A stretch of DNA of 63,800 nt, filler included, from Folioceros fuciformis (GCA_049999805.1; 8 parts of 8 records of this genome joined end to end with filler, not necessarily neighbours in it); one strand, 5' to 3'; shown: positions 1 through 61,892, counted from the first letter of the whole stretch. Program-made: numbers and translations. Notes: generated by a model from the sequence alone, not told the origin.

Positions 1-2027
1 CCTCTGTTGGCCGAGCGCCTTCGTGTGATGCATGGCGACACAGGTCTACGTGTAGCCCCTGCGTAGCGGGGAGCTTGCGCTCCTCCTCGCTTGTTCCTCC
101 GCTGCGACGGTGCTCCTTGTTCATTCCTCCGCTGCGATCCAGGTTCAGAATGGATCATGACCCCTCCTACACTTGTTCCTCTCATGCCTTGTGCTCCAAG
201 AAGCACCTGCATTGTCAATTTGAAGCATTGCGCCGCTTGTGCTGCTCGCGATGGAGGCTCACGAGCTTGCACGAATACTCACTTCTGGGCCTGCTCCACA
301 GCGGCTATCTCCATCTGCTGTGCCTTAGCCATTTCCTGTTGCAACTCCAGGTTAGCCTCGTAAGCCTCCCTCACCTGAGCTAGCAGGGCCCCCTGTTGTT
401 CCTTCAGCGCCTGCACTTCAGCCCTCGCCTTGCGCGCCTCTTCCTTGGCTTGAGCCTTCTCCTTGTCCAGGATCCATTGCTTCTCCTTCAGTAGTTGCTG
501 CGCTGTCTCCGACTACGCCAGTTGCCTCCTTACTTCAACCTCTCGCTCACGAGCCTCCTCCTCTTTTCCTCGAGTCTCGGTTTCTCGCTCCGCTTGTACA
601 CTTAACTAGGTCAGGGCCCTAGCAGCCTGATCCACGAGGTCTGCTTGGGCTTCCACCATCGCAGCAGTCAGCCCGAGCAGGTCCACCTCCTGCACCCCTC
701 CGGTGCCCATTCCTCTTGCCGTGATTTGTTTGCCCAGGAATTCTTGCAACTTGTCCAGGTCCCCCACCTGCAACTTGTCTCTCTGAGGCCTGCACCTGAA
801 AATGTCCTCCCACCCTGAGAAACCCTCCTGTGCTGAAACGCGCCCTAACTTATCCTCCTATCTGGAGGAAACTGTGTCCGCTGCCATCACCTGATCCTGT
901 GGCCCCTCGGGTCTTGTCTCACCCTGACCTTGCTCCTCCAACCTTCAGTCCTCAATTCCCTGGACTGCTGGTTCTCGTCCTCCCTCCTGCTGGCCCTTCT
1001 GCTCCAGGGTTGCCCCCTCTTCCTCCTGATCAGCCCCCATGCTCACACTTTGTCCTCTGGCCCTTTTCCTCTTGACAGGAGTCTTCTTCTATAGCACCAT
1101 CCTCTTCCTGGGCTTGACTGGGGTTTCTTCCTGCGAGCTATTCCCACTGTTAGCTTCCCAACTGCTGGAGGCAGCCCTTGCTGGCTCAGCGGGCTTCCAC
1201 TTCACATCGCGAATTGGCTTCCACAGGTGCAGCGAGGCCAGCATTTCTAACTCAGTGACTAGGTTAGCGTAACTGTACACATGGATTAGAAACGGGGAAA
1301 TAATACAAGGTTCAAGATTGGGTCGGATCAGGTTATGCCTCTCCTCATCCATCCGGACATATAAAATCCGCCCCCAGTCGATCCTGGTACCCTTCACTAC
1401 TTCATGCACAAACAGGAGCATCTGGTCAGACAGATAATCCTGTTTACGCACCCGGAAGAAGCTCAGGAACCACCTGGCCAATCCCAACAACTGGGGACTT
1501 GCCATGTCGCGCACCAGCCACCCGTTCGCTTCCTTTTTCGTGCCTGCCTTGAGCAGCATTTCCGCGGCTCCCGTCCCGCCACGCTTCTTCAGGGACTCCA
1601 GCACCAGCCCCCCCTCCTCCTATTGGTCGCGCCCGTAGACCTTCCTAATCAACTCTAGGCTCCATTCCTGGGGTCTGCCTCTGATCCCCTCCTTGCGTAC
1701 AGGCTCTATCAGCCTCAGGGCGCACTCCCAGACCAGCTGGGGTGCTGCATGGTTCCACTTCTGGGTCATACAGCTCAGGCCCCGCTCTGCCACCAACTTC
1801 CCTGCCCTCACCCTCCAGTGCTCCATATTGGGCCACAAGAGTAGGTCAATTCGGGGGACAGGAGGCCCCCCCTCCTGTCCAGAGGCTGCTGCTCCAAGGA
1901 TCAGTTCAGGCCGCACCCTCATCCTGCCTGTCCTTCTCCTCTCACACCCTGCGTCGTCTCTCCCGTCGTCTTGGCGCTTTCCCCTCTTTCAGCCGCTTCA
2001 CGCTTCAAGTTACTCCCGCTCCCCATA
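1..2027 (-). pseudogene. Decayed extra ORF of a Ty3/Gypsy (Tat-like) retroelement: globular N-terminal domain plus long coiled coil
   Basis: ORFs 1620-1922 and 1089-1604 share one frame, which continues toward position 1 with only a few TAG/TGA stops. Motifs IDWGRIL and ISPFLIHVY, then E/Q/A-rich heptads (EKAQAKEEARKARAEVQALKEQQ). Lies antisense just upstream of a G-run and LTR-like segment. Confidence 0.55.
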
Positions 2028-4480: not shown

Positions 4481-4710
4481 TACATGTTTTTGCCATTACC
4501 AACGCTCGTTGTAGAGGAATGGAAGCCATTTAAATATGTTTTTATATTACTTATGAGATTATTTATTTTTATTTCATCACATCTAATATGTTATATGAAT
4601 TATAAATATCTTTATAAAATATAGAACTTTATGTTTTTATAATTTATTTTATGTGTTAATATTGATGAATATTTTCTTTATACTATGACCCATTTTTCAA
4701 AGATGTCATT

Positions 4711-5447
4711 TGTCACAACCCCAAATTACACTACTTTTAAATAAGATGTGTACCTTGGAAAATTGAGCATGCTCGTTTCTTAGTTTGCATGGCCTTTCGT
4801 TGATCTCAAGTACTCTACCAAGAAGCCCAATTCAACAAATGCAAATACGAAGCTACCCTAGGCCTATCTATTATGAAAAAGAACCTATTTTGTTTTACAC
4901 CTAATATCCTATTCACTATAACTTTTCCAAGGTTACGATTTATCTATTATCTTGTTCATTCGTTATTACGGTTTTTGAGAAAGCAACCTCATATTCATCT
5001 AAGTTGTTGTGCTCTAAGAGATCTTGCCTTCCAACATCTGAATGTATTTAACCCTTAGACCGTTTAAACTTAGCATATATTTTATATTCATGTATATATG
5101 GGTTGGCCAGCCCCTATATTGATATATGCATATATTCTTGCACTGCACACAAATGCCTCCCTTAGGGTGCTTCCTCTCCATCGTGCACACCAAGGTTGCT
5201 GGTCATCTTTCCACTCTTCGGTGGTTTACTACACACGAGATTGATGAAAGGAGTAGCTTTCTCTACTCCTTCTCCCTCAATGTGAGTAAGTGATCACGTT
5301 TATAATTCATAGATGCCTCACCTTGGGTGCTTCCTCCTCATCATACACACTAAGGCTGTTGGCCATCCTTCCACTCTTCGGTGGTTTACTAGACACAAGA
5401 ATGACGAAAGGCATAGCTTTCTCTACTCCTCCTCCCTCGATGTGACA
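4711..5447 (-). mobile_element. 3' LTR (737 bp) of the PHD-integrase Gypsy element
   Basis: Minus strand reads TGTCACA...TGTGACA (7-bp inverted termini) directly after the PPT. Internal ~130-bp duplication at ~5153-5285 and ~5313-5445. Confidence 0.8.
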
Positions 5448-5466
5448 TCATCACTCCCCCTCTTAA
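5448..5466 (-). promoter_or_regulatory. Polypurine tract (PPT)
   Basis: Minus strand TAAGAGGGGGAGTGA immediately before the LTR start. Confidence 0.8.
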
Positions 5467-5563
5467 TCTGCTGACCATCTTTTGTTGGCAAGACATATTA
5501 ACAAAATTTGCACCAAAATTCATCACTTGAACCCGTTCCAATACATGCTAACCACACTGCCCT

Positions 5564-7706
5564 TCACAACGTATCAACTGCCACGCACATTGCACAAAAC
5601 CATTGCCCCTCAGGCACTGTTTCTAGTGGAGGCTCTAAACAAAAAATATGCCACCCATCATTGCACCTATCACAGAACAACATGCAATGATCCTTTCCAG
5701 GGTCTCCACAGCTTGTGCAAGCAAATCTCTTATTTTGTACAAAAGCTTGCACATAAATTATTGGATTTAAATGAGGTAAATGACATGGCGCACAATTTTT
5801 CATGTGCTCCAAACAAGTTGTACCATCTCTTCCCTCCAATTCCAAAACTCCATTCAATTTCACACTTCTCACTCTTAATATTATTTTACTTGCTCTTGTA
5901 TCAATTATTGTCATTGTCTTCCTCTGCAAATATACATAATCTCCCACTTCAAACTTTTTCACCTTAGGTATGAAATGCCCACTTCATATTTTCTTGTACC
6001 TTAACTTATCCCTATGTTGAGCTATTAATAAGTTGTCCATTGCCATGCACATGATTCTCTTAAACAACTCTACCCTTTGTGTAACTATCTGCAACCACTT
6101 ATTAGGATCATCCAACTCCACTATAGCATTTACCATGTCTTCCAACATCCCTAATAACTGTGGCCTCCGCCCAAACAACAACACGTATGGCGAAAACTTT
6201 CCCAATGATGCTTGCCTACTCATCCTATAACTCATCGCAAGAAATGGTAACATCCTATCCCACTCACTCTTGTCCATTACCAAACAATACTTTCTCAAAG
6301 CCCTCTTGCATGTCTGTACCATTCTCTCCGCCAAACCATCAGCCTCTGGATGATTCCTTTAGGTAACCCTATGGTCAATAAGATACTCATTTAAAAATTC
6401 ATCAAAATCTCCCATAAACCCAGTACCTTGATTTGTCAAAATTTCTGCACATGCCCCAAAAACACTCAATACATGATTAAGAAACGCTTCTTTAATGTCA
6501 CGTGCCTTCTTCTTTCTTAAAGGCACCAACACTATCCACTTAGAAAAATGTTCTATCATTACCAACACATATTTAAACCCTCTACGCGTGACTGGTAAAG
6601 GAATACATGTGTTGGATAGCTGATTAGGGTTCGGTAGTCTAGTTAAGTTAAGAGCTTTAAAGGACACACCTTTTCATTAGGGTTACTTCCTTTGATTAGG
6701 TCACAACGTTTCAGAGGTGACTTAAGTTATTCTTATGACCAATACATTATTGTTGTATTCTTAACACAATGTGATTATCTAATATGTTTAATTGATATGT
6801 AATTACCTAAATTTGTTAATTGATAACTCTCTAGCCAAATCCAAACTCCGCCTATGAAACATCCCCCTAATAGGCAACGAATGAAGCTGAGAAGTTTTGC
6901 TTGAAAAACTCGCTTTCACCCTACCACAAACTTCACAAGTAGACGCCACCTTCTCCATCACCTCCATCATTCCTTTCTAATAATAATTGCTCATGAGTAA
7001 ACTTAGTGTCCTTTTTGTACCAAAATGTCTTAACTCTACATGAATTTTTTTTGTCAAATTATCATTTCTTTCGGTATTGGCACCATCTTCATGTTTTCCC
7101 TACACAATAACTTATTATCAACCCATACATACCTTCTACTTCGTTTCGTCACTCTATCATTCTCCCTTACCATCAACGGCTCTTTATTTCTACTCGTCAT
7201 CACCCACTCCAATGTATTGTTGTCTTCCCAAACTTCCATCGTCGTCGAAGAAACTCCTAACCCCACCAAATTCACCAGGTATGCACTTGGTGTCCATTTG
7301 GACACCACCAAGTTACAGTGAACCCCTTCATCTTTATAAAATCCTGCTTGGCAGCTGTAGAGTGCTTTGCACTTCCCAACAGATTCCTTGATAACACATT
7401 TGCATTAACATGTTTCGCTCCTATCCTATGCTCAATAGAAAAATTATACTCCTATAAAACGAGTGCCCACCTCGCTAAGTTTCCTGTCAATTTTTCACTT
7501 TTCAGCAACCACTTCAAAGGTTGATGATCTGTCACCAACTCAAATTGAGTACCATACAAATAAGGCTTAAAATGTGATACCACCCATACTGCCGTCAAAC
7601 ATTCTCCATGATATGAGGAATAATTACTCTCAATAGAATTGTTACTCCTACTTGCATATGCTATCACATGCTCCACTCCATTTTCATCATCCTACACCAA
7701 CACTGC
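5564..7706 (-). pseudogene. Ty3/Gypsy pol fragment: RNase H - integrase - C-terminal PHD finger
   Basis: RNase H (VIAYASRS..YHGECLTAVW..LVTDHQPLKWL..LARW); integrase core (SLDLAREL/PVTRRGFKYVLVMIEHFSKW, LTNQGTGF, GLAERMVQT); FEVGDYVYL; then C4HC3 PHD at 5585-5719. 5' part cut off by the LTR insertion at 7707. Confidence 0.9.
6599..6823. mobile_element. 225-bp AT-rich insertion splitting the integrase
   Basis: Removing it plus one TAA restores the codons E-L-P-V-T-R-R-G. TAA lies on both sides (6596-6598, 6824-6826). Its start recurs at 35469-35505. Confidence 0.65.
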
Positions 7707-8575
7707 TGTGGAGCACATAGTAGATAGATCCCTTAGAAAATGATAGTATTTGTTTTTTTTTGAATTGTGGTTGAATACTTTGGCAGGGTCGATAGGGAAT
7801 TAAGCTAAGTAGGATGGTTAGGGCCCGGGTGGTGCTTGTGGTCGAAGGGTAACGAGTCCTGGGGATAGGGTGTCCAGATCTGTGTGGAACCCTAGGTCAC
7901 AAGGTGGAACCCTAGGTCTGCGCGTGTGAAGGGTGAGTCGGCTCCTGGAGGGGAGATGGGGATGTCGGGCCCTGCTCCTGGTGCACCGGATAGACAAGGT
8001 TCACAAGGGCACAACAGCGCGGGAGCGGGGATACTATGGTTGCGCGGTATGCGAAATGTAGGGATGTTCAGGAGTGCGTGCACCGAGCATGACTAGTCTC
8101 GTATCCTCGGCTTACATGGAGGCCATGCCCTACAAGGGTATTCTCAGCTCTGCTCCCCCTGGGTATTCTTTGGCTCCGGACAGGCTGCGGTAGCGGCATC
8201 TCTTCGGCCGCCGTGTGGGTCGTGGAACGGAAGGGAGGGTGGATTGAGCTGCGCTGTGGGGGGGCGGGTCGAGCTGTGCCCACCACAACTCAACCCGCCC
8301 TCCCGCCCTGATCGAGCTGTGCGGGCCGGGGTGGATCCGGGCAGGCGGCTTGGCTGCCGGGGTAGATCTAAGCGAGGCGGGATCGCCAAGCAGGCCGCGT
8401 TGGCAGCAGGATGGCCGGACCCGCAGGTGCAGCAGCCTGGGAGCCGGATTCGGGCTGAGGCCGATGGGATTCAACGGGATGGTTGGGCAGGCAGATCAAA
8501 GTGGATCCATCTGGCTGGGAACAGCGGCCTGGCTGGCTGTCTTAGCCAAGCAATCGCCCGGCCCGCGAGTGCCCC
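7707..8575 (+). mobile_element. 5' part of an Athila-like family LTR (TGTGGAG...) with GC-rich tract, truncated
   Basis: Starts TGTGGAGCACATAG..CCCTTAGAAAATGATAGTATTTGTTTTTTTT, matching the ends at 46327 and 58699. Inserted in the Gypsy RNase H. Confidence 0.7.
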
Positions 8576-8579
8576 TCCC

Positions 8580-10300
8580 TTCCTCCTCCGATCCTACAGT
8601 GGATTCAACTTCCTTCCTCCTCTTCTTGGCCCTCTGTTGCTTTCCTCTCCTCCTTCCACTACGGGTGCATATTGCCATGGCTGCAACCTCCCCATAGTAA
8701 CCACCCTTTGTGGTGTCCAGGTCTTCCAATCCCCTAAGCACCTTAGCCTCAGCCTCCTCCCAAACAGCCATGAGAGCATTCTCTACATGCATGGCTGTTG
8801 CAACCCCTTGGGTTGCTGCTTGTTGCACCCCCATCACAGCTGGTTGGGCTATTCGCACACTCTTCCTAGGGTTCTGGCAAAGCATGCTGCCCGCCCCATG
8901 ACCTTGTTGTTTGCAGTCTTAGCACAACCTGTCATAATCTCCATTGGCCTGCCTGGTTGCTGATGGACAGCTATGGGCATAATGTCCAAAGCCACGGCAA
9001 TTGTAGCATTGGACAACCCCCGCTATTTAGTTAGCAACCCTACCCACCTGGTTACTGCGACCACCCATGACCATGGAATTTCGCAGAATGGAAGGGTGAG
9101 CTGTCTTGGGGTATTGCTAACCTTGGGGAAACTCCTGAATCTGGTAGGAGTCCTCCATCGGCCACTCCTCTTCCTCTCCCTCATAGGTCAGCAAGTGCAC
9201 CTTAGCCCCTTGACAATGGGACTTAGTGTGCCCTTGCTCACCACAAGTGGAGCAAAACAAATTGGCATGGCCATTAGTTGCAGCCCTCCTCCTCTCATGT
9301 TCCTTGACAACATGGAGATGAAACTTCTCAAACTTACTCATCATCTCCTCTATCTTGGACTCCTACTGCTCCATCTTCCTGCTCCTTGATCCTTAGTCTT
9401 CTTTGTCTCCATCCTCCTCTTAGCCACCTCGGCCTCCTTCTTCCTCCTCCTTTTCTTGGCAGCCTCGTCCTCCGAGGACTCCTCCTCCATGCTGTCCTCC
9501 GCTGAAGATGAAGAACTCCCCGATGTTGATCCCTTTGAAAAATCATTCTCCTCAGAGGAGTCTTCATCCGAGGAGGATAACTCCTTCTTCTTCTTCCCTT
9601 TCCTAGGCCTGTTCTTCTTCTTGTCCTTCTCCTTCACCCTCTCTCTCTCCTTCTTGGATGTCCCCTTGCCCCAAGGGTGGGATTCTTCATAGTTGAGGGC
9701 TGCCTTGATAGCCATGTCCACGTCTTTCTCTGCAAACAGCTTCACATGGCCCCACATTTTGGACCCTAGGCCTCCAGCAAACCACCGGATAGCCTACAAG
9801 TCAGAATGAGGCCCACAGCGGTTTCGCAGGCTATGGAACCTCTCCACATAGGCTTGCAAGGTTTCCTTCCGCCTCCTTCTCAAGGACTCCAACTTGGACA
9901 GCACATAACCCTCTACATCTATACCCCTAAACCTCTCGCAAAAGGTCCTCTTCAGCACATCAAAAGTTGCTAGAAAAGTACCGGACTTGAGGTACTCCCT
10001 CTAGTACCACTTGGCAGGCCATAGAACCCCATAGAACAATTGGATGCACTGTGCATCCACTGATTCATGGTTAGTAATGGTCAGCAATTCAAGCTGCTCC
10101 ACAAACTCATCCGGATCTTCATACCCCTTCGTCCCCCCATACAAAGGGTCCGGTTGCTTGGTGGACATTGCAACAGGAGTTGGGACTGCCATGGTGCCTG
10201 CACTCACAACCAGAGTTGCAGATCCAGCAGCTACAATTGTGTTGATGTTGCTGGACCCTTTAGCACCTGCACGCCTAATCACCTGCACAAGACTAGGATG
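8580..10300 (-). pseudogene. Ty3/Gypsy gag (retrotransposon gag domain, K/S/E-rich linker, two CCHC knuckles)
   Basis: YGGTKGYEDPDEFVEQLE..AKWY, KETLQAYVERF..GGL, CSTCGEQGHTKSHC and CYNCRGFGHYAHSC. Stops and frameshifts present. Confidence 0.85.
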
Positions 10301-12558: not shown

Positions 12559-15500
12559 GGTATCTCAACAAAGTTCTATATGCTTTGTCCTCGCATGAAA
12601 CCTGGGATTGGAAACGAGAGCTATAGCACCCATATTGTTGCAGTGTAGCTTAGTTGGTCCGATTTGCGGTTGTTGCACTGACTCAAGAAACTGCCTTTGC
12701 CATTCAGCTTCTTTGCAGGCATCCGTAAGGGCCTTGTATTCAGCTTCGGTTGAGGACAAAGCTAGGGAGGTTTGTTTTTTACAGCTCCAGCTCACCTAGC
12801 CTCATGTTAGAAGAAAGCAGTATGCCGACAAGCTGCGGCGGGTGTCTGCATCAGACGCCCAATCAGCATCGGTGTATGAGATAAGTTCCAAACTCTTACT
12901 CCCACTTGAGGTATATTGCAAACCATATGTAATAGTCCCCTTTAAGTATTTGTAAATTCTCTTTATAGCAGCCCAGTGAATCCTTCTTGGCTGCTTGAGG
13001 AATTGAGAGGCTTGGCTAACAGCATAACTAATATCGGGGCGTGTCTAGTTAGCCAGGAAAATCAAACACCCCACAGCTTCAGCATATGGCACATAGGTAC
13101 AGCAGTATCTGCATCTTCATGTTCCTGTTGTGAAGGAGGTTCACCATCTGACATTGGATAGGTGAATGGCAGAGCATGTACAGACTGATCGATATCCACA
13201 AAAGGATATACAAGATGAGGATCCACATCCAGCTTAGGAAATGACAATTCTATGAAGGTAACACTACGAGAGAGTGTAATTTTTAAGGTTTGGGGATCAA
13301 ACAGTTTGTAAGCTTTAGACTCTTTTGACTAACCCAAGAACATAAGGGGTTTAGCCCTAGTATCTAATTTCCCCCTCTTCGGTTCAGGGATATAAGCATA
13401 CGCTGGACACCCGAAAACTCAAAGATGCAAGAGGCTGGGCTTCCTACCCCATAAGGCTTCATAAGAAGTCTATCCTGGGAGAGCTACTATGACCACACGA
13501 TTCAAAATATATGTGGCAGCAACAACAGCCTCTCCCTAGAAGCTTTTAGGGAAGGATGACCACGAGAGCATGCTTCGTGTCATTCCCATCAATGTTTGGT
13601 TCTTACGCTCGGCAACACCATTTTGCTGCTGAGTGTAGGGAACAGATAGCTGCCGAACGATGCCAAACTGTTGGAAAAGGTGGTCAAACCTGTAACCTGT
13701 AAATTCACCTCCATTATCTGTACGGAAGTACTTGACTAGTTTTCCTGTTTGACGTTGTACCATTGGAATCCAGGAAGCAATGGTATCAAACACATCACTC
13801 TTCAGCTTAAGAGGAAAAGTGCGAGTGTAACGTGAGAAGTCGTCAGTCAACGTGAGATAGTATTTAGCGCCACCAAGAGACTTCACAAGGAGTTTACCAG
13901 CTATGTCAGCATGAATTAGCTCCAAGACAGATTTGGCCCTTGTTGTTATCTTATTCTTGAATAGTAACTCTTTTTGCTTGGATAATATGCAGGAGCGACA
14001 TGCCTCAAGATGCTTAAAGCAAGGAGGAAGCTGTTCTTTATAACAGTTAGACGATGACATAAGATCTAACTTAGACCTATTCACATGTCCTAAACGTGCA
14101 TGCGAGAGGTTAGCCTATACATTGTAAGCAGCCAACAGAGCCCTTACTTTGGATTTTTGAATTGTTACTAATTGATACAAGTCATTGATTAGAACAGCCT
14201 TAGCAATAGAAACTTCTGGAAATGACTGCTGGTAGATATAACACTTCTTGTTCTTAAACTTAAAGCCATATTTCTAACTCTAAACAAGGGCTTTGATGGA
14301 TAGAAGATTCTTACTCATCTCAAGGACAAAGAGAATATCATCCAGATGCAAAACTGTTCCACCAGAAAGAGGTATGTTTACTGAACCAGTTCCTTTTACC
14401 TTAACACCATGAGCATCACCAACATACACTAGTTGAGGTGATAGCTGTTTGTGTAGGGTGGAGAAGAGTTCATCGTTGTTGCAGACATGAGCCGTTGCGC
14501 CAGAGTCCACAAACCAGGAGGAAGACTGATTCTTATAAGAAGTCAGGCAGACTGTAAGGACAATTTTCCCACTCTTATGTTGAGATCCAGAGGTCTTGTT
14601 CTCCTTTGATGTAATGTGAGCTTGAGATTTGGAATCCTTCTTAGGCTCACCCGCCTTCTTTTTCCTGCAGTCATGTTCCCAGTGTCTGGGGATCTGACAC
14701 CAATTACAGTTACCATTGTGTTTGGTCGGGAAGTTGGAAGAAGAGGTAGAAGACGTGGGTGTCTTCTTGCCCTTGTCTTTTCCTCTCCACTATCCTTTTC
14801 CTTTGGAGGCAAACAGGACCTTCTCCCCTCGCAGGCGGGAACCTGAATGGGTATGTAGGTGGCCTTGTTCCTCTTGCAAGAGAGCCCCTATGATTTCATT
14901 CAGATTCAATGTTGATGGTTGACCACTTGCTGCTGCCTTGTAAGCGTCACGCAAGGTGGCATTCTGACTGGATATGAATGTTTGATAAGACAAAGGCAGG
15001 TTGGCCAACAGTTGAGCAGTCATCTCCACCTCAGTGATCTTGGTACCTAGCGCGGCAAGCTGTGCCCGTAGGTGCCTCAACTTAGTGATATGAGCCCCAA
15101 CTGGGTCCTTCAACCTAAGACTATGGAAGTTATTACGAGCATTGATCATCGTACAAACATTCTGAGCCTAGTAAGTATCAAATAGCTGCTTCCAGACAGC
15201 TTCAGCTGTTTCCAAGGTGTCAACTTCAGTTACTGTTGACTCATCCAGACGAGATAATAGAATAGCAAAAGCAACCTTGTTGCCTTTCTTCCACTTTGCT
15301 ATCTCATCAACTTTTGGTTGTGGAAATGTTGTGCTAGGGACCTTCAATGGATTGGGTATGGATCCGTCCACACACTCCCACACGTCCCTGGCATCCAGGT
15401 TAGCTTTCATTCTCGCCTTCCAGCTCTCAAACCTGAGAGTTTCCCATCAAATCTGTCTTTCTTCTTAAATTCACCTGAGTAAAGAGACCCAACAGATGTA

Positions 15501-23674: not shown

Positions 23675-24078
23675 AGGCAGGATGTATGATATCCTCGATT
23701 TCACAGTAGCATTAGCTCAGCATCCATGATTCGCCGCACAGCAGCATTAGCTCAGCATCCATGATTCGCCCACATTGCTCACAATGTAGATCGGCAGAAC
23801 GTATGATATCCCCGATTGCGTAGCAGCATTAGCTCAGCATCTATGATTCGCCCACATTGCTCACAATGTAGATCAGCAGAACGTATGATATCCCTGATTG
23901 CACACCAGCATTAGCTCAGCATCCATGATTCGCCCACATTGCACACCAGCATTAGCTCAGCATCCATGATTTGCCCACATCGCTCACAATGTAGATCGGC
24001 AAAACGTATGATATCCCCAATTGCATAGCAACATTAGCTCAGCATCCATGATTCGCCCACATTGCTCACAATGTAGCT
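23675..24078. repeat. 82-bp minisatellite with partial (35/41-bp) units
   Basis: ATTAGCTCAGCATCYATGATT at 23711, 23746, 23828, 23910, 23951 and 24033. Confidence 0.9.
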
Positions 24079-24353
24079 CGATTGGTAGCTTCTAGGCTTG
24101 CAGCTGTATCTTAGTATCCAAATTGGGCAAGTGACACTGACCTATATGCTTGAGGTGTTTTTGTTGGGATAGCAAGGATCTAGGCCTTTATAAAAAGGTC
24201 ATACAATGTTCCCACACAATATGGGACATAAGTGTGCTAGGCACACTTGTACAACAAGATGGCACACAAGCCTACACACAAGTATGCACTACCCTTGGGT
24301 AGGCTAGGCCTTTATAAGCTCCTAGGCCTTCCATGTTATTGGTCCTTGACTTG

Positions 24354-24538
24354 TGTGGAGGCAAAACCCCGGGCACTGATTGCCGACGGGTTCCACCTTT
24401 AGTGGCCACACTTATCCCACTGTCGTTGAGACATTGGGTTTCGTTCCCACGAAGGAGCGATGGGGTTCCTTGCTGCTGTGGATGGAGGGTCGGACTTGAT
24501 CAACTCGATGATGGATTCGAGGGCTCCCCTCCAGCTCC
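24354..24538 (+). mobile_element. Terminus of a young LTR (TGTGGAGGCAAAACCCC...)
   Basis: Near-identical inverted copy at 25073-25257; both copies run into assembly gaps. Confidence 0.7.
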
Positions 24539-24865
24539 NNNNNNNNNNNNNNNNNNNNNNNNNNNNNNNNNNNNNNNNNNNNTTAATTAATTAANNNNNN
24601 NNNNNNNNNNNNNNNNNNNNNNNNNNNNNNNNNNNNNNGGTCCTCAAAAGTTGTAGTAGGATGCCCTCTATCGTGGGAAGAACCCTAAGATGGAAAGTGG
24701 TAGCATGCTATGAACGGGCGAGGTCCATGGTTAAAATGGTTCCAAACACATAATTAAAATGGTTTGATAGGATGTCCGGTCTATTTGATTTTTAACCTAT
24801 TTTGAGAAGTAATGCACATACACAGCATATTTAAATACTAATCTAATTTCTTTAAAAAGATTTGG

Positions 24866-24894
24866 ATTATTATTATTATTATTATTATTATTAT
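24866..24894. repeat. (ATT)n microsatellite
   Basis: About 9 ATT units. Confidence 0.9.
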
Positions 24895-25040
24895 CTAAAA
24901 ACATTTACTTAACTTCTTTTTCTTACTTGATAAATAAATANNNNNNNNNNNNNNNNNNNNNNNNNNNNNNNNNNNNNNNNNNNNNNNNNNNNNNNNNNNN
25001 NNNNNNNNNNNNNNNNNNNNNNNNNNNNNNNNNNNNNNNN

Positions 25041-25257
25041 GCCGGACAGCGAGGCTTGTCATACGCCTGATCGGAGCTGGAGGGGAGCCCTCAAATCCAT
25101 CATCGAGTCGATCAAGTCCGACCCTCCATCCACAGCAGCAAGGAACCCCATCGCTCCTTCGTGGGAACGAAACCCAATGTCTCAACGATAGTGGGATAAG
25201 TGTGGCCACTAAAGGTGGAACCCATCGGCAATCAGTGCCCGGGGTTTTGCCTCCACA
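25041..25257 (-). mobile_element. Terminus of the same young LTR, inserted in a Copia RT
   Basis: Interrupts FLHGELEEVLFMEQ at 25258. Confidence 0.7.
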
Positions 25258-27153
25258 GCTGTTCCATGAACAACACCTCTTCGAGCTCACCATGAAGAAA
25301 CGTTGTACAGACGTCCATCTGGTGCAGTTCTACATCAAACTTAGCTGCCATAGCAAGTAAGATTCGAACTAAGGGAGGCTTGACCACAGGGGAGAATGTA
25401 TCTCCATAGTCTATCCCAGGTATTTATGAAAACCCTCTTGCAACAAGTCTGGACTTGTAACGGGCAATTGTGCCATCTGACTTCAACTTGGTTTTAAAAA
25501 CCCATTTACAGGTGATAGGCTTTCTTCCAGGAGGAAAATCTGCAAGCTCCCAAGTATGGTTTTTGACCAGCGAATTATACTCGTCATTTATAGATACCTG
25601 CCAGTGTTCACCATATGGTCCATTTAAGGCTTCAGTGTAACTCTGTGGATCAGGCCTGATCTCTGGAACATGTAGGTCAGTAATATTTGCAGCATGTTTC
25701 CTGAAATCAATTGAGTTGTATGGGAGCTCACTCCACTCTTCCCTTGGTCGTCTGTCTCTAGTGGGATAACGAGGGGAAATAACTGGAGGAGTATTTGGGT
25801 CCACATCCACAGGTGGTACAAGCTCCTCATCAAGAGGATCAGAAAGATCAAGGACATTATCATTGTCCACTGAAACAAGAGAGTGTACATCATCACCAGA
25901 GTCCTCAACACCCAGGTCAGATGTGTCACTAATAGGGTCACTATTATCAACAGGGAGAGAATGGACATCATCGATGTCTAATTGTCTAGGTGGATCACCA
26001 TCTGAAGCAGGATAGTGCACAAAGAACTGCTGATCATCCTCAACTTCAAGTTCAGGAGTCTTATCCTGAACGGATTCAGTTGAGAGCATATCATCAACTG
26101 TAAGATTTGACCTAGGGGACAGTAGTTCCTTGAAAGTGGCACTTCTGGACAAAGTTATCTTTGCTATCACTGGATCAAATAGCTTGTATGCCTTTGACTC
26201 TTCTTAATAACCAAGGAAGATGAGAGACTTAGATTTGTCATCTAGCTTTCTCCGTTTTGGTTCAGGTATATAGGCAAAACCAGGTGAGCTGAAGACCTTC
26301 AAGTGTAACAGACTTGACTTTCGTCCCCAAAGAGCTTCGTAAGGTGTTCTACCAGGAAGAGCTGAAGTGACTACCCTATTAAGAATGTAAGTAGCACTCA
26401 CGATAGCCTCTGCCCAATACGTCTTAGGTAGAGCTGACCATGAGAGCATGCTTCTAACCATTCCCATTAGGGTTTGGTTTTTCCTCTCTGCAACACCGTT
26501 TTGTTGTTGGGTGTATGGGACGGAGAGCTGACGAACAATGCCAAATTATGTGAACAAGTCATCAAACTGATGTCCAGAGAACTCCCCGCCATTATCTATT
26601 TGGAAGCACTTGACGAGATGTCCACTTTGTCTCTGAACCATCACAATCCAGTTAGAGATGGTCTCAAAAACCTCACTCTTCAGTTTTAAAAGGAAGCTCC
26701 ACGTGTATCTGGAGAAGTCGTCAGTCAAAGTGAGGTAGTACTCTTCTCCTCCCAAGGATTTGACTGGTAACTTCCCAGCAATGTCTGCATGTATCAATTC
26801 CAGCACAGCCTTGGCCCGATTTGCAGTTTTATTCTTAAAGGGAAGCTCCTTTTGCTTTGACGGTATGCATGAGGTACATGCTGATAAGTGTTTGAAGCAG
26901 GAAGGTAGCTTCTCTCTGTAACAACTGGAGTTAGCCATAAAGTCAAGCTTATGGCGGTTAATATGACCAAGACGTGCATGCCAGAGATTGGCCTATGCAT
27001 GAGCTGCAGCTAGCAAGGCTTTGACCTTTGACTTTGGAATCGTAACTAGCTGATACAGATCATCAACAAGTACAGCCTTAGGAATGTGTCCTTCAGGTTC
27101 TACAAGTAAGTAAATGAACCATTTTTCATCTTCAAACCTGAAGCCATACTTTC
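25258..27153 (-). mobile_element. Ty1/Copia pol fragment (GAG-pre-integrase, integrase, RT N-terminus), same family as 12559-17040
   Basis: WHARLGH, LELIHADIAG, DNGGEF, DPQSYTEAL, KPITCKWVFKTK..YKSRLVARGF. Confidence 0.9.
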
Positions 27154-27427
27154 TGTTAAGGTGGAATAGTTTTCTTTTAACCTAACTCGATGGGTTAGTC
27201 TAACTTAACTAGGGTTAGACCAGGCCAGGTACATAAACATACACACAAATACCTTTTTATTATTCAACATACAATTTTTGATATAAGCTTTCGCTATTCC
27301 AAACATTGGAATCAAAGCCATGGATTTTTCTTTTTCTGAAATTGCTCTTGATAATGAGAGAATAGATCTACTGTTTAGGTGGTCTCTAGATCCTTGGTTC
27401 TAGAAACTTCTTTTATGAAAATTTGTA

Positions 27428-27964
27428 ATGGTAAGAGGTAGAGGTCGCCGGCCTCCGGTGTCTGTCTTTCAGCCTTCTCCTAATCTGAGTACACGAGTGA
27501 AGCAAGCTGTTAGAAAACCTGGAGTCTGGGGTGATACTCTGTCCTCCACAATAGATTACGTTAGATTTGCTCGAAAGGGGTTAAAGCAATCTTTCTCTTG
27601 TAATCAAAATCCTACGAGGAGGTCAACGAGAAGTTATGCTAGGAACCTATGTGCTCACAATCCTTGCGAACTGGAATTCTGTCAACAGATTTCGGCTGTG
27701 ATCCATGAATCCCTAGTCCCTATCCATGATTTGAGGCAGGTTGTGAGCAGGATTGTGGAGCTTCTTCTTCAATTTAGTGAAGAGGTGTGCAGTAGACTCA
27801 CAGCGATTGAAGATCTTCTGGAACAGAATTCTGTGGTAATTTCAGCACTATCTTCTCAGCAAGGACAGGTTCACATTGATTTCTCTGTTCGTAATCCAAT
27901 GGCTGCAATATATCTGCCTTCGATGAAGCCATCTTGCTCTGGGCGAGATGCCCCTCTTCTGTGA
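27428..27964 (+). CDS. Intact 178-aa extra ORF upstream of Copia gag (basic N-terminus, coiled coil)
   Basis: ATG ~110 bp after the PBS; MVRGRGRR; helical C-terminal half (LRQVVSRIVELL..RLTAIEDLLEQ); NPMAAIYLPSMKP. Homologue at 15975-16567. Confidence 0.6.
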   Translation: MVRGRGRRPPVSVFQPSPNLSTRVKQAVRKPGVWGDTLSSTIDYVRFARKGLKQSFSCNQNPTRRSTRSYARNLCAHNPCELEFCQQISAVIHESLVPIHDLRQVVSRIVELLLQFSEEVCSRLTAIEDLLEQNSVVISALSSQQGQVHIDFSVRNPMAAIYLPSMKPSCSGRDAPLL

Positions 27965-28575
27965 AGAATATTGAGATCCAAAGGGACGCGCGCCGTGGCA
28001 GGAATAACTAATTTTGTGATTCGCCTCTAGGCGCCGCCCCTGCTAGGTGTGGTTTGCAGAATCGGATCGGTGAGTGGGTGATTGGCTTTGGGAATTCTGC
28101 TGCCACATGTTCATGTCGCGCTTCTGCCTCGCGTCCGTCGCGATGAGACGCTGTAACTTGTCATTTTGATACTTTACTTTTTAAGTTGGCATTTCGTCCC
28201 TTGTGTTTAAGTTGTCGATTCGGCCTCCGTTCGTTTTGTTTTTAAGTTCCTTCTTTATAAAACAGCTTAAGTTGAGGTTTTGTTTAAGAAAAGGAATTTC
28301 GAATAGTTTTCTATCAGTCTAGTTTTGAGAGGTAGCTTACCTTTTGCTAGATTGTGCATGTCCACTTCTTCTTCAAGTAGTGAGTCTGACTTTGTAGTTG
28401 AGTCTCATCCTACAGATAGATATGCCTCCACTGATTCAGAAGCTGAAGAACAAGTCAGATTACATGCACAACTCACACAATCACGTTTGAGCTAGCACAC
28501 TTGAGAGCTAGTTCTGTTCTCCCTTCTCCACCTGTACACTCAATACCTCCTCCTGTGGTTTCTATTTCTCCTATC

Positions 28576-30503
28576 ATGGCAACTCTAGGAACTACATATT
28601 GTGGAGAGTTTAAAGAAAAGGACCGGTTTGATGGAAAAGCTTCCCATTTTGAGTGCAGGCGTGCCCGGATGCAAGACTTCTTGGCTGCCAGAGATGTGTG
28701 GGAGTATGTTGACGGTTCTCTTCCCAAACCTGATCTTTCAAATCCAGGTGTAACGCAAGACATGGTGGATAAGTGGAGAAAGGGAAATAAAATAGCTTTT
28801 GCTATTCTGCTCTCAGGCTTGGATGAAACAACTGTTATTGAGGTAGAGTCCTTACCTACAGCTGCCGATGTTTGGAAGCAGCTCAAGGCTACGTATCAGG
28901 TGCAGAACATTCTCACCCTTGTGCATGCAAGAAATGGGTTCTATGGCTTGAAGTTGCGTCATGGAGATCCAGTGGGACCACATATTGTGAAGTTCCACCA
29001 TCTGCATTCCTAGTTAGCAACTCTTGGATGCAGTATGACCAAAGTGGATGCAGTTGCTCAATTGCTTTCCAGCTTACCAACTTCTTATCAGAACTTCGTG
29101 TCAAGCCAAAATACCTCCATTTGAGCATCTTATCAAGCTGTGAGTGCTGGTAAACCTTCCCTTATAACGTTGAATGACTTGATTGGGGCTCTCCTGCAAG
29201 AGGAACAAAGCCACCAAAAGTCATGGCCTTCGTCTCGCCTCCGGGGAGAGAAGGTGCTTTACGTTTTGAAAGGAAAGGGACCAGGGCACAACAATAAGAA
29301 CAAGAAAGGGGGGAGTTCATCCAGCCAGTCTTCTCCTCCTCCTGTCAAGCGCGAAGGCGCCTGCAATTGGTGTCAAATCCATGGGCATTGGGAGCGTGAT
29401 TGCAGGAAGAAAAAGGCAGGTGAACCTAAGAAGGAGGCTCGCCCTTTGGCTCATGTTAGTACCAAGGGAGCACCTTCTGGACAACAGCAACATAAAAGCA
29501 GCAGTGTTGTGTTGAATGTGTGTCTCATCTCAAGCAAGGAGAATTCATCTATGTGGTTTGTGGATTCTGGATCTACTTCACATATTTGCAATAACAGGAA
29601 GCTATTTTCTAAGTTCAGCTATCAATCACCTTTTCATACTGTCTATGTTGGTGATTCTAGAGGACTTGAAGTGGAGGGTAGTGGTCAGGCTAGCATACCT
29701 TTGCTAGATGGCACTAGTTTGCAGCTCTTTGATGTGTTGTATGTACCTACCATGAGTAAGAATTTGCTTTCTGTTAGAGTAGTCACTTCTGCTGGTGACT
29801 TTGGCTTTAGCTTTGAACATGGGCATTGTTACATATATAGAATACACTTGCCATGGGAATACGTTGCTGAAGCTACCTTAGTTGATAATTTGTATCAGCT
29901 AGATCCTTCCCCTCCTTCCTCTCTTAGTGCCCAAGCTCTAGTGGCATCTTCTTCTCTTCAAGCTAGTTTGTGGTCTAGAATGGTCCCGAGTTGGTTTCTC
30001 TTCATGCGCGTTTAGGTCATGTCAATAAGGCTAAGCTTAATCTCATGTCTCACTCAAGCTGCTATCGTGAGGAGCTGCCTCCTTGCTTCAAGCACCTTGC
30101 TTCCTGCAGTGCGTGTATTTTGTCTAAGCAAAAGGAGCTTCCTTTCAAAAATCAAATGGCAACTCGGGCCAAAACAGTCTTGGAGCTTATACATGCAGAT
30201 TTGGCGGGGAAACTTCCATTGAAGTCACTTGGTGGGTCTGAGTATTACCTCTCTCTCACAGATGATTATTCACGTTATACATGGACTTTTCCGCTGCAAC
30301 TGAAGAGTGATGTTTTTGAGCATATTTCCTCTTGGATTACTATGGTTCAAAGACAAACAGGGCATTTGGTTAAGTGCTTTCGCATGGATAATGGTGGAGA
30401 ATTTACTGGACATGGGTTTGATGACCTCTTTCAACATTATGGGATTATTCGCCAAGTTTCTGTTGCATATACTCAACAACAAAATGGAGTTGCGGAGAGG
30501 AAG
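28576..30503 (+). pseudogene. Copia gag-protease-integrase, disrupted
   Basis: ORFs 28501-29013, 29140-30015 and 29991-30503; in-frame stops at 29011 and 29122, frameshift near 29990. Confidence 0.9.
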
Positions 30504-31517
30504 NNNNNNNNNNNNNNNNNNNNNNNNNNNNNNNNNNNNNNNNNNNNTTAATTAATTAANNNNNNNNNNNNNNNNNNNNNNNNNNNNNNNNNNNNNNNNN
30601 NNNTGTGCAGCTGCTGCTTGGGTTCCACTTTGCTCACTGCTGGCCGAATCTGGTTGTTCTTGTGCACAGGATGGTGGCGCCTCATAGCAGATGGATTCTA
30701 TTGGGTCACCTTCGTAAGGGCTCCACCTGCGCCTCTCCGTCTGCTTCAACCTGGCCATGGCAGTGTGTGTGATTCGGATTGGTGTGTGTGTGGTGTTTCC
30801 TTCAGCGCCTGCGCTCTTAAGGCTGCTTGCCCATGTTTCTTTTATGCTCCCAGCCGCGCGTGTGGGCATCGTTCTATTGCTTATATGTGAAGCCCGTGAA
30901 TTTGTTGTCCATAAACGTTGTCGCGGGTTGTTGGTGTTTTCGTACTTAAAGCCTTAAAGCATGTTGGGCTTTAGTGGTGTTGAGTATGGTAAACCCAACA
31001 TGGGTTAGCCTAACTTAGGTTAGTTAACCTGTGGTTAGCTATATAGTTTATTATTTTAAACCCTAAACATTTATATATGTGCTCTCTTGACTTCTTATAA
31101 TGTAATGAACTATTCGTATGCTTTCTAGCTTCCGCTGTATGTTTTCAGGATCCTCTACAACCTTGTCCCCTGCAGCCTAGATTGTCGGTTCAGCGACGCG
31201 GTTGGGAGCCTTCCAGTGCCCAGCCCAAATCCACAGAGACCAAGTTCTTGCCTCACCATCAATCTAGCATCGGTCTTGTAATTTCTGCGTGCCTAGCTCC
31301 ATTTGTCACAGCCCTGGCGATCTAGTCAAGGTCTCAAGACCTAGGCGTCCTTCTACTCTATCCCCTTGACACAAAAAACCACAACACCTCTAGACCCTCG
31401 AGTGGTTGATCTCCACTGCACCTTCAACTCTCCTCACAACCTAGCCCTTGCTGGTGTTGGCCAAGCAAAGCTCCCAGCCTCCTCCAATGCCCTAGTCATC
31501 ACCCGCTACATGAGATG

Positions 31518-41898: not shown

Positions 41899-44800
41899 TA
41901 TAGGGTTATTAACGCCCAATGTGCTTAGACTAATGTGATAAGTCTAATTAAACTAATGTGATTAGTCTAATTAAACTAGTGTGATAAGTTTAATTAGACT
42001 AATGTAATTAGTCTAAGATTAGTGTTTAATTAAGTATCATTAGCTTAAGCTAATCTTTAGGAAGCTTCCTGCATAGCTTCCTGTGAGCTTCTTGTGAAGC
42101 TTCTTTGGGTGCTTTTCTAGAGGGTATAAATACCCCCTTGAGCTCCCTTTGCAATAGAGATGTAAGACCTCTCTTTCTCCTCTCCTCTCCTCCTCCCTTC
42201 TTCTCTCCTCTCCTTCACCATGCTCCTCTAATGATCCTTTCAAGTGGTATCAGAGCAAAGGTTGTGGAGCAAGATAGTTGTGCCTATTGTAGGTACAATG
42301 AGCGGAGGCACAAGGCAAGAAGATGGAGTTAGGAGGGTTAGGGCGCCAGTAGGGCGCCACCCGGGCGCCAACTAAGCACCACTTAGGCCGTCAGCAGGGT
42401 GCCAACGCGGCGCCACTTGGGCGCCACCCGCGCGCCACCCGCGCGCCAACGCGGCGCTACTTGGCCGTAAGCAGGGCGCCAGCGGGGTGCCACCTTGGTG
42501 CCAGCAAGGTGCCCGTAGGGCACAAACTAGGCACCAACTAGGCACCAACTAGGCACCAACTAGGCACCAACTAGGCACCAACTAGGCACCAACTAGGCAC
42601 CAACTAGGCACCAACTAGGCACCAACTAGGCACCAATGGAAGGGATACCTGGACGGTAGTCGTTCGCCAGTGGANNNNNNNNNNNNNNNNNNNNNNNNNN
42701 NNNNNNNNNNNNNNNNNNNNNNNNNNNNNNNNNNNNNNNNNNNNNNNNNNNNNNNNNNNNNNNNNNNNNNNNNNGCCGAACTGACCCCGACCGTGGAAGT
42801 CAAGATCTCGATCGGACGATGGGAGACATTCCAGTTGTGAGCGATCGAAGCCCAAGTTGTGGACATCCGATTTGGAACAAGTTATGAGGGTAACTTTGAG
42901 AATCTACATTACATTCCGACTGTTTACTAACTAGCCTTTTAGTTGATTTGCATTGGTTTTTGAATCATGACGTCCTCTAAAAACATCATGTTCAATATCG
43001 AGAAGTTAGATGGTACTAACTTCCCGTTCTGGAAAGAACAAGTGTACAATGTTCTAGTGCAGAAGAAGCAAATCAAGCCGATAAAGTTGCTAGGAGTGAA
43101 ACCTGTTAGCATGACTCAGGATGAGTGGCAGGATCTAGATGAGCTTACTAGGTCTACCATCATACTAACATTGTCAAAGTCGGTCTACTTCAACGTGAAA
43201 GACAAGACCACAAGCTACGAGCTATGGCAGAAGTTGTGTGACCTGTACAAGAAGTAAAGTGCGGCTTCTCAGGTGTACTGGTTGAAACAACTAGTGGACT
43301 TGAAGATGAAGGAAGGGACAAGGATGTCCGATCATCTAAACGAGTTCAATACAATTTTCAGCCAGCTCTCATCTCAAGGTATCTCGTTTCCAGATTCCGT
43401 GAGAGCTATGTTTCTATTGGTCACATTACCAGAGAGCGTCCCAACACCTTTCGTACAGCTCTGAGTAATTCGGCTCTTGCCAGTGGTCTTACCGTTGTAA
43501 ATGTAGAAGGTAGTCTGTTAACAGAGGAGGTGAACAGGAAGAATATGGAACCTTCGAAAGGTTCCAATGCCCTCATGGTGAGAAGAAGGTCCACTTCAAA
43601 GGGGAAGTACAAGGAGCGAAGTTCTTCCCATAGTAAATCTCATAGTCGTAACAATGTTGAGTGTTACCATTGTCACAAGAAGGTCACATCAGGAAGGACT
43701 GCGAGAAGTTCAAGAAGGACATAGGAAAGGAGAAGAAGCAAACCGACACCAAGGCAAGTCCGAGTACCAAGCCTAACGAGGTGAATTATGTTGACGATGG
43801 ATATGTTCTTATCTCTTCTTCCTTCGATTCTGCACAACTGACAGCGGTGGATAGTCATTTATTCTCTAATTGGATAATTGACTCTGGAGCATCTTTCCGT
43901 GTTACTCCGCATAAGGAGTGGTTTAGCACTTATGATGCTACTAGGAAAGGATGTGTTCGGCTTGGAAATAACTACGCGTGCGAGATTGCAGGCGTTGGTG
44001 ACGTGCAGCTGAAGTTCCACAACGGATCTTCATTCACATTGAAGGATGTTAGGCATGTTCCGAAGTTGACAAAAAACATGATTAGCGCAGGGCAGTTCGA
44101 TGACGCTGGCTACCACTGTTGTTTTGGAGATAATTCTTGGAAGGTCTCCAAAGGTTCTCTTGTGTTAGCTTGTGGAACGAAGTGTGGCACTTTGTACTCA
44201 CTTCAGGTAACCACTGTTAAGGATCATGTGATTTGAGTAACGGAGCAGCCAAGTGTTTCCTTGTGGCATAGTCGGTTAGGACATCTGTCTCAAAAAGGAA
44301 TGAAGATCTTATCTCGTTTTGGTTACGTCCCTGCTTTTGACTTCTCCGATTTCTCCGTGTGTGAGTACTATTTGTATGGAAAACAGATGAAGTCACCACA
44401 TGGAGCAAGAGGTAAACACAAAAGTAGACCTCTTGAGTTGGTTCACAATGACGTTTGTGGACCTATGTCCACTGTATCGTTAGGCGGTGCATCTTATTTT
44501 GTCACTTTCATTGATGACTTTTCACGCAAGGTGTGGGTTTATCCTTTGAGGAAAAAGGATGATGTTCTGACAGTGTTTCAGAAATTCGTCACCCTTGTGG
44601 AGACTCAATCTGGCCTCCGACTGAAGTGTCTAAGGACAGACAATGGGGGAGAGTATGTCTTGAAGGCTTTCCAGTCATTCTGTGATTCTAAGGGAATCAA
44701 GAGAGAATTGATTGCGCCGTATACTCCTCCCCAGAATGGTGTGGCTGAACGGATGAACAGGACCATCCAGGAGCGGATGCGTAGTTTATTGTCAAACTCT

Positions 44801-45417
44801 GGATTGCCTAACGGATTTTGGGCCGAAGCAATGGCTACTACGGTGCATCTTATTAACAGATCTCCTAATAGGGCTGTGGATGAGCAGGTTCCGGAGGACT
44901 CCATATGGTCTGGAAAGAAGCCGTCATACAAGCATCTACGAGTGTTTGGCTGCGAGGCATACTACCATGTTCCTAAGGAGTTTAAGGACAAGTTGGCACC
45001 CAAGTCCAAGAAATATATTTTTCTTGGCTATGGTGAATCTGGTGAGATGGGATACCGTCTGTGGGATCCAGAGGCCAAGAGAATGGTTCGCAGTAATGAC
45101 GTGTTCTTCAATGAGACCAAGATGCGCAAGAAGCCTACTCCAACTGTGGAGGTGCGACGGGTGGTGTTTCAAGAAGATGGATTTGACCGTCCTGCGCAGG
45201 TTGAACGTCGTGATGTGCAGGAACAAGTTCCTCCACTTGTACAAGAGGAGAGAGTGCAACCAGCTCCGGTCGAGGCACCATTGCTTCGTAGGTCAGGAAG
45301 GATCTCACATCCTCCTGACAGGTATGTTGCATCTCTTGATTATGTCATGCTGACGGATTGTGGGGAGCCCTCTTGTTACCAAGAGGCCATGTCAGTGACT
45401 GACAAGGACAAGTGGGA
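41899..45417 (+). mobile_element. Tnt1/Tork-like Ty1/Copia element; 5' LTR 41899-42242, PBS 42245-42256, disrupted gag-pol 42967-45417
   Basis: TGGTATCAGAGC PBS; FNIEKLDGTNFPFWK, WIIDSGASF, WHSRLGHLS, LRTDNGGEY, NGVAERMNRT, GEPSCYQEAM. The LTR matches the solo LTR at 62333-62795. Confidence 0.92.
42525..42636. repeat. 11-bp tandem repeat (AACTAGGCACC) in the Copia leader
   Basis: About 10 perfect copies, preceded by degenerate GGCGCCA units from ~42340. Confidence 0.95.
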
Positions 45418-61748: not shown

Positions 61749-61892
61749 TGAAAATACCTAATATTCTAGGGTAAGCTATTTAAATAGTCAGGCATTTGCT
61801 AATTATTAATTTAACGAACGGTTGTAGGTATGAAACGCCATAGCGTTTCGTAGCGTCGTAGCCAATGGCGGTTAAGGGTCACGCCTTGTGAA
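61749..61892 (+). mobile_element. 5' end of a small LTR (TGAAAATACC...)
   Basis: Homologous to the reverse complement of 10430-10572. Cut by the contig end. Confidence 0.55.

Follow-up and report, generated by a model that had tools for sequence, protein, structure and literature searches.

The window, the whole stretch of 63,800 nucleotides of Folioceros fuciformis DNA that was analyzed, is composed mostly of nested elements, and towards its left end it holds the 3' part of a Gypsy element whose integrase terminates in a PHD finger. The features of this copy, from the 5' side of the element, are the following.

6821..7706, minus strand: RNase H end, tether, and zinc finger of the integrase, interrupted by stops and frame changes
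6599..6820, no strand given: 222-bp foreign insertion splitting the integrase, missing in five compared family copies
5987..6598, minus strand: integrase catalytic core in the PHD frame (Pfam rve), broken by stops at 6359-6361 and 5984-5986
5720..5983, minus strand: C-terminal beta domain of the integrase, with FEVGDYVYL and the CAPCH motif, and linker
5585..5719, minus strand: C4HC3 PHD finger at the integrase end (Pfam PF00628, E 1e-9, profile positions 1-47 of 47, 8/8 ligands)
5564..5566, minus strand: stop codon of the polyprotein frame
5454..5469, minus strand: polypurine tract (PPT), read from the sequence and kept in family copies
5005..5453, minus strand: repeat B, 449 bp, TG..GCACAACA; family-copy homology starts at 5453 and stops at 5005
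5001..5004, minus strand: the four flanking bases next to the element, where the target-site duplication is expected, judged from the 4-bp duplications of two-ended copies

In frame -2 of the minus strand (5983-5564), FEVGDYVYL and the CAPCH motif are followed by CTSC-x11-CDRC-x4-HIFC-LEPPLETVPEGQWFCAMC and a stop. The preliminary description of this DNA had read here a complete C4HC3 PHD finger, and the profile comparison bears this out: Pfam finds the whole finger with all eight ligands and, upstream of it, an rve match at 6362-6673 (E 2e-9), and integrase core and finger align with the polyprotein of a sister family as a single tblastn piece (6598-5585). The polypurine tract placed 3' of the PHD frame and the glycine placed two residues ahead of the histidine are both present. 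As to intactness, the finger is indeed whole, but the frame that carries it has stops, frameshifts, and the 222-bp insertion, and the 5' half of the copy is missing. Two stops lie between integrase core and PHD (6361 and 5986) and further ones at 6979, 7454, and 7694; the frame changes are near 7341/7245 and 7066/7057, and family homology stops at about 7706, with gag, PR, DNMT, RT, and repeat A outside the window. The window copy is a dead 3' end of an element, in which the finger alone is whole. The insertion at 6599-6820, with a TGTTGGA start on the plus strand near 6609, is possibly a piece of another LTR.

The 737-bp LTR that had been assigned to the element is replaced by the family repeat of 449 bp (5453-5005), which is the post-PPT half of a split LTR and forms the right end of the window copy. 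Ends of the type TGTCACA..TGTGACA do exist at 5447..4711, but, the window itself apart, none of the 44 own-genome matches listed (from 40 scored of 83 candidates) passes query position 471 (about 5000 in the window), and the extra 294 bp, like 4701-5004 as a whole, are matched by the window's own loci only, among the loci compared.

Elsewhere in the window, a remnant of another integrase-PHD element, with 46% to the sister polyprotein, lies on the minus strand at 23676-24157; the DNA that encodes its PHD seems to have been expanded in part into the 41/82-bp tandem repeats D3/D7, which adjoin a 185-bp inverted-repeat element at 24354-25257. Sister family C is represented on the plus strand at 2414-2485 by the final 72 bp of its repeat B (97% identity), with a half-palindrome end. 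GC-rich repeated elements with open frames occupy 1089-1988 (minus), 8097-8963, 46793-49628, and 54224-57208, with copies recurring at 11, 54, and 59 kb; the two open frames at 1092-1988 have no Pfam match. Copia-type fragments (gag, integrase, and RT-like frames, by eye) are found at 13536-14789, 25424-30551, 43242-45469, 52437-53186, and 61091-63799.

Domain content and descent of the element

The sister family retains a 2386-aa open frame comprising a gag-like region, protease, C5 methyltransferase, RT, RNase H, integrase, and PHD, and three long copies of family A, the family in which an integrase tree of 67 rows places the window copy, are colinear with it, methyltransferase included. The Pol order PR-RT-RH-INT in one frame is the Gypsy arrangement (in the sister family, with family A colinear), and the integrase is a DDE enzyme (rve) with D-D35-E spacing. 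No tyrosine recombinase is among the Pfam hits of the sister frame, and no chromodomain was found by Pfam at the integrase C terminus of either that frame or the window copy. The methyltransferase inside Pol is of the Dnmt3 type and is unrearranged; its PDB hits are DNMT3A/B/C in 29/29 (best E 1e-10), and DNMT motifs I, IV, VI, VIII, and X are found in families A, B, and D, with damage in some family A copies. Its position varies: some subclades have it ahead of RT, and one has it after RNase H and before the integrase. The latter arrangement is seen in P0023, P0025, P0033, P0034, P0035, and their allies, a subclade with a tail of ∼330 aa after the PHD that is weakly Tudor-like in one row. Two own-genome loci, L033 and L034 (G000 C6056 and C6226), have internal deletions and an acidic tail 3' of the PHD, and their long open frames join DNMT to integrase-PHD without RT/RNase H.

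In the RT/RNase H tree, 95 of 144 rows form one clade. A subset of 54 rows picked from this tree gives the clade a support of 100/99 and leaves outside it seven chromodomain-bearing or allied rows and the genome's own other Gypsy elements; it should be noted that the outgroups are own-genome and database elements rather than REXdb references. The integrase tree has the window copy inside the same group. Named relatives are Klebsormidium nitens (the best), Coleochaete, Marchantia, Calypogeia, Riccia, Closterium, Tetraselmis, and Pseudoscourfieldia, and Streptophyta and Chlorophyta contribute one unnamed PHD cluster each (ESM Atlas). An E-class PPR gene points to a land-plant host, and these nearest named relatives make a seed-free one probable. 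A DNMT-bearing Pol of K. nitens, P0241, is a member of the 100/99 clade and is joined at 99 to PHD-bearing integrases of the same species; from its species and domain content it would be the published KnitGypsy-Dnmt3 (de Mendoza et al. 2018, PMC5890265). The element thus very probably belongs, by these sequence relationships, to a KnitGypsy-Dnmt3 lineage of non-chromovirus Ty3/Gypsy elements in green plants. As described in the accessible text of that paper, KnitGypsy-Dnmt3 shares the Gypsy domains, a Dnmt3 in Pol, and a DIRS-like A-coding-B-A-B order; the land-plant members, self-priming, target duplication, and palindromic joint are additions made here. A PHD is unnamed in that text and the readable supplements, although Fig. 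4c or the supplementary figures may depict one.

A chromovirus with a swapped domain was considered and rejected: because the RT/RNase H sequences form a separate clade (100/99), and the integrase likewise, with the chromodomain rows outside, the element is not of that kind. The statement that the PHD stands instead of a chromodomain is therefore unsupported as regards descent, the lineage being a clade separate from every chromodomain-bearing row tested; the PHD would rather do a chromodomain-like job, gained independently. Chromoviruses (Tcn1, Tf1/Sushi, MAGGY; PMC6317226, accessible text) resemble the element in carrying a chromatin-reader module at the integrase C terminus and, as in Tcn1 and Tf1, in self-priming, but the element differs in its PHD, its separate RT/RNase H and integrase clade, its split repeats, and its DNMT3. 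Three own-genome Gypsy elements allied to chromodomain-bearing ones (L163, L164, L169) have a C-terminal module that is chromodomain-like by eye, without a Pfam call. Gypsy polyproteins from outside the clade (P0228, P0257, P0268) carry a PHD after RNase H and before the integrase; P0228 has a Dam adenine methylase as well.

Split repeats and the route of insertion

The 5' repeat of family A, termed A (495 bp), is unrelated to the repeat B that follows the polypurine tract, and insertions take three forms. The first is A-ORF-B with a 4-bp duplication (AAGT), A-ORF-B with plain flank being the commoner form in family A. The second consists of A-B units with one or two joining bases, whose duplications are perfect in 5/8 and have one mismatch in 3/8. 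The third, A1-ORF-B1-GC-A2-B2, occurs complete in two copies of sister families, whose duplications are ATCT and ATAA, and a complete A-ORF-B-A-B with the duplication GCAT/ACAT is also present in one metagenome contig; family A has A..B, A-B units, and only three B-GC-A joints, these with a short A. One sequencing run on the family A unit covers 3/30 bins, with no joints in these.

In three families the B/A joint is a palindrome, CAYGACA-GC-TGTCRTG, and the outer ends of every copy are its two halves. It has 10 sites in the genome (two of them on one duplicated contig) against none for the reversed control, and six of the 10 sit 190-590 bases beyond a PHD. Among metagenome loci (the best 80 of 444, many redundant, 69 with enough sequence), a half site was found in 61/69 and the full joint in 17/69 (15 distinct), as compared with 2/48 and 0/48 control windows, and DNMT is upstream in 20 of the 21 loci with room for it. 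The primer-side and PPT-side ends are unconstrained (family B has an A ending in TCTT and a B starting with GAAG). The bases after A complement a stretch inside A, over 11-16 bases in family A (11 of 16 copies, against 0-1 of 200 shuffles), over 18 bases unrelated to these in family B, and over 15 others in the metagenome copy; Tf1 and Tcn1 prime themselves according to the accessible text of PMC6317226. At the A2/B2 joint, the pre-primer end meets the post-PPT start, with 0-2 bases in between that vary and often look PPT-like. No target-site preference is apparent among 47 flanking 4-mers, of which 1/47 fits NCGN, the Phygy target preference given for REXdb in that same text.

These features suggest that the functional LTR would be B-GC-A. 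An RNA running from within A1 to within A2 would prime itself in the manner of Tf1/Tcn1, giving a cDNA with B-GC-A at each end, and the ends would then be joined into a circle; such end-joining would leave an A2/B2 joint with the 0-2 variable bases observed. The DDE integrase would open this circle at one internal palindrome, cutting CA^GC on each strand, so that a two-LTR circle would yield A-ORF-B-A-B and a one-LTR circle, or later recombination between repeats, A-ORF-B and A-B. Cleavage of two-LTR joints by integrase is reportedly known from foamy virus.

A route without a circular substrate has also to be considered, in which A-ORF-B-A-B would arise, for instance, when linear or concatemeric cDNA is cut internally and then recombines into resident copies. 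A-ORF-B with plain flank, the commoner form in family A, could follow cutting at both internal sites, and repeats can be misplaced by short-read assembly, but complete A1-ORF-B1-A2-B2 units have their own 4-bp duplications (ATCT, ATAA, GCAT/ACAT), and the A2/B2 joint resembles that of end-joined two-LTR circles. Such a linear route is rather improbable, and opening of a circle by the integrase inside the LTR is the likely course. Elements of DIRS order provide a parallel. Ngaro and PAT are DIRS-order elements with split direct repeats, and SymbioDIRS-Dnmt3 shares the A-ORF-B-A-B order, an implied circular intermediate, and, in this Symbiodinium case, a Dnmt3 in Pol, but the present element differs from them in its 4-bp duplications and in having a DD35E integrase in place of the tyrosine recombinase of that order.

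The PHD finger: conservation and proposed role

Tail and PHD used as a query gave at least 150 own-genome matches (150 scored of 184 candidates), close family A copies being mostly 70-86% identical and several families 45-50%. An integrase-only query was chosen to avoid circularity, and the downstream sequence was checked in the best 30 loci of its 150 matches. PHD sequence follows the integrase in 26/30, although one has the first 12 residues only; in the other four, homology is lost ahead of the PHD through an insertion, gap, or deletion, and no other domain was found in its place in those loci. The eight ligands could be aligned in 24 of 29 family A loci, and 16 of the 24 keep all eight. 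The dN/dS of the finger is 0.29 (95% interval 0.18-0.48 by codon bootstrap; pairwise among decayed family A copies, the pairs not being independent), that of the integrase core/tail (5768-5983, family copies) is 0.19, and those of three non-coding pseudo-frames at the 3' end are 0.95, 0.98, and 0.56, the last with an interval (0.40-0.80) that overlaps that of the PHD. These data place the finger within the element, as had been proposed, and support a PHD that is family-wide and apparently under purifying selection. In a search of the genome for PHDs (150 scored of 188 candidates), 96 of the 129 matches listed sit on integrases of the KnitGypsy-Dnmt3 lineage. Among the 83 database rows of the clade, 56 have the PHD, 15 stop before the integrase C-terminal domain, one is cut within it, and 11 reach the integrase tail without a called PHD; seven of these 11 form a Closterium-containing subclade (at least seven rows) that is truly without a PHD, from which the CAPCH motif upstream of the PHD is gone as well, yet in which DNMT is kept.

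A cage Trp at His-2, which marks readers of methylated K4 (PMC5415848), is present in 0/68 database PHDs of the lineage and in 0/62 readable metagenome PHDs. The Asp after Cys3 (64/68) and P-x-G-x-W (50/68), both of which the window copy has, correspond to the R2 and A1 contacts of KDM5A PHD1 (bioRxiv 715474), and the histone-contact residues are among the best-conserved positions other than the ligands. The best solved relatives are KMT2D/C PHD2, KDM5/lid PHD1, BAZ2A, ATXR5, and CHD4, with many UHRF1 entries, and the ING, BPTF, and TAF3 types are absent among the 60 PDB hits listed of 77; most of the close solved relatives prefer unmethylated K4 (PMC5415848). An alignment-based model, used in place of a single-sequence prediction that was set aside (pLDDT 40), has a pLDDT of about 90 in the finger and superposes with an rmsd of 0.7-1.5 Å on the PHDs of BAZ2A/B and ATXR5. 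Tudor-PHD fold matches (PHF1, UHRF1; rmsd 11-15 Å) reflect domain order alone and were also set aside. H3(1-35) of this genome was modeled in complex with the PHD, with no controls folded; the score of 0.23 lay below the threshold and was counted neither way. The likeness to readers of unmethylated H3K4 of the BAZ/KDM5-PHD1 type seen earlier is thus sustained, and the residues of the PHD appear fitting for a reader of the unmethylated H3 end. Because the cage Trp is found in 0/68, the R2 Asp and A1 pocket are kept, and relatives of the ING/BPTF/TAF3 type are lacking among those hits, a K4me3 reader is unlikely.

The likeness to the PHDs of KDM5 (PHD1), BAZ2A, ATXR5, and UHRF1 extends to the lack of a cage Trp, the Asp after Cys3, P-x-G-x-W, and the superposition just given, but family A differs in being without the N-terminal Asp and the acidic-wall residue. 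Across the lineage an acid occurs at Cys3-5/-6 in 35/68 and before Cys1 in 52/68, so that the K4-pocket acids differ, as they do between families A and B; family A has, in most copies, an Asp at the position of KDM5A E305, a His where the acidic wall would be, and basic residues ahead of Cys1, so that one of three K4-pocket/acidic-wall positions is acidic. The variable pocket acids, the His wall of family A, the PHD-less subclade, and the lack of a 4-mer preference argue against a strict K4me0 filter. An alternative is that the PHD is a methylation-blind nucleosome anchor of the UHRF1 type, reading A1 and R2, ignoring K4, and improving integration without steering it from promoters. A1 and R2 are the residues whose contacts are invariant, the UHRF1 PHD recurs among the matches and there is a structure of it with an H3K4me3 peptide (3sow), and the target sites are without preference; however, the K4me0 preference of most close solved relatives (PMC5415848) and the E305-equivalent Asp of family A speak for discrimination, and this alternative is considered unlikely.

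An ADD finger serves animal DNMT3A, and the PHD might in a similar way serve the DNMT3 of the element, with reading of H3K4me0 coupled to methylation of the newly inserted copy or its flanks instead of to choice of site. PHD and DNMT3 occur together in 33 of the 83 database rows, many others being partial, no row outside the clade has a DNMT, and the internally deleted copies keep both in one open frame without RT. PHD and DNMT, however, lie on opposite sides of RT and would be parted if the protease cuts in the manner usual for Gypsy elements; the PHD-less subclade retains its DNMT. The Klebsormidium DNMT was without activity in yeast, a result that its authors regard as inconclusive (PMC5890265, accessible text). 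A role of this kind is quite unlikely. Slightly less probable still is a non-histone role, in which the finger would bind a host remodeller or the N terminus of an element protein, or be a structural part of an intasome for circular DNA. Related PHDs bind PAF15 and Stella (according to structure titles), the top relatives KMT2D/KMT2C and UHRF1 also have non-histone partners, and the CAPCH motif and PHD are lost together in the Closterium subclade, but this role is at odds with the conservation of the histone-contact residues, and a movable tether is suggested by certain Gypsy elements from outside the clade in which the PHD follows RNase H and precedes the integrase. That the PHD is a passenger, either a captured host fragment or an assembly chimera, as the broken window copy might suggest, has a negligible probability and is refuted because the PHD is family-wide, 45-50% identical across families, present in algae, liverworts, and metagenomes, and has a dN/dS below 1.

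The best reading of the finger is therefore as a putative reader of the H3 end that tethers the integrase. Binding of the PHD to the H3 end is predicted with good likelihood from its residues. The PHD would remain on the processed integrase and dock on nucleosomes through the free H3 N terminus (A1 and R2) and, by disfavoring trimethylated K4, would direct insertions away from active promoters; the chances that avoidance of K4me3 shapes insertion are about even. As far as seen, copies occur in genic and repeat-rich contigs alike. The CpG value of the flanks is 0.48 versus 0.68 at 12 host-gene loci, with 0.51 for the window; this depletion fits methylated surroundings but is compatible with targeting, later spreading, and selection alike, and was not counted. 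The PHD-bearing Gypsy-7a_cRei of Chlamydomonas has intergenic insertions at 2.6 times chance, a bias that may stem from selection according to its authors (PMC9940879, accessible text).

Relation to known elements and significance

Taken as a whole, the best explanation, with a probability of roughly 0.55, is that the window holds a copy of the KnitGypsy-Dnmt3 lineage that would be inserted by opening of a circle and guided by the H3 end off active promoters. REM1, like Gypsy-7a_cRei of Chlamydomonas reinhardtii, is a Gypsy element with a PHD in its polyprotein. The caution expressed earlier, that PHD-bearing retroelements may already have been reported, proved justified by Gypsy-7a_cRei, which resembles the present element in having a PHD in a Gypsy Gag-Pol and in the hypothesis of chromatin-guided gene avoidance (PMC9940879, accessible text). 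Compared by description only, it differs in its two ordinary terminal LTRs and in that no DNMT is listed for it; its legend places the PHD before INT, as in the three rows outside the clade, which indicates that the PHD may sit elsewhere in the polyprotein. PHDs are called common in retrotransposons in the accessible parts of PMC6673714, PMC8557442, and bioRxiv 2021.11.30.470311, whereas REXdb, as far as its description is accessible (PMC6317226), has no PHD lineage and requires two matching LTRs. The accessible parts of PMC12344493, PMC10508981, and 10.64898/2026.05.21.726589 have nothing on this finger. In the literature searched, whose scope did not extend to Repbase, theses, and subscription journals, no account was found of an integrase-terminal PHD in a land-plant Gypsy element, nor of land-plant members of the lineage, their self-priming, or an internal-LTR palindrome and circle opening. 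With PHD-bearing relatives already published, the PHD alone is of modest novelty; greater surprise lies in the DNMT3 domain and in a structure with split repeats, self-priming, and palindromic ends, and the combination of PHD, DNMT3, and split repeats is barely described in a land plant.

Since the copies lack two matching terminal LTRs, libraries based on LTR finders, such as REXdb, would miss these elements. Gene counts are inflated by them, as the PHD matches of the genome indicate; the Marchantia gene Mp7g09570 (P0017), annotated as a PHD gene, is composed of DNMT-like, integrase, and PHD pieces of the lineage and looks like a fragment of such an element. A wider reading, which is offered tentatively and is doubtful at present, is that a widespread and largely unclassified green-plant lineage of LTR retrotransposons uses end-joined circles as the normal substrate of its DDE integrase, which would cut a palindrome in mid-LTR, and has its own H3K4me0 reader and DNMT3 writer, a pairing that follows the logic of animal DNMT3A, to choose silent chromatin and to mark the new copies. 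LTR circles are usually regarded as dead ends in the replication of retroviruses and retrotransposons, and with a family whose insertions resemble opened circles, a natural enzyme becomes available for testing whether circles can integrate, a question of long standing. Gypsy integrases would have in the PHD a second histone-guided targeting module, independent of the first and this time in land plants; specialists would take note of a land-plant element that combines such a reader with a DNMT3 writer and with what looks like circle opening.
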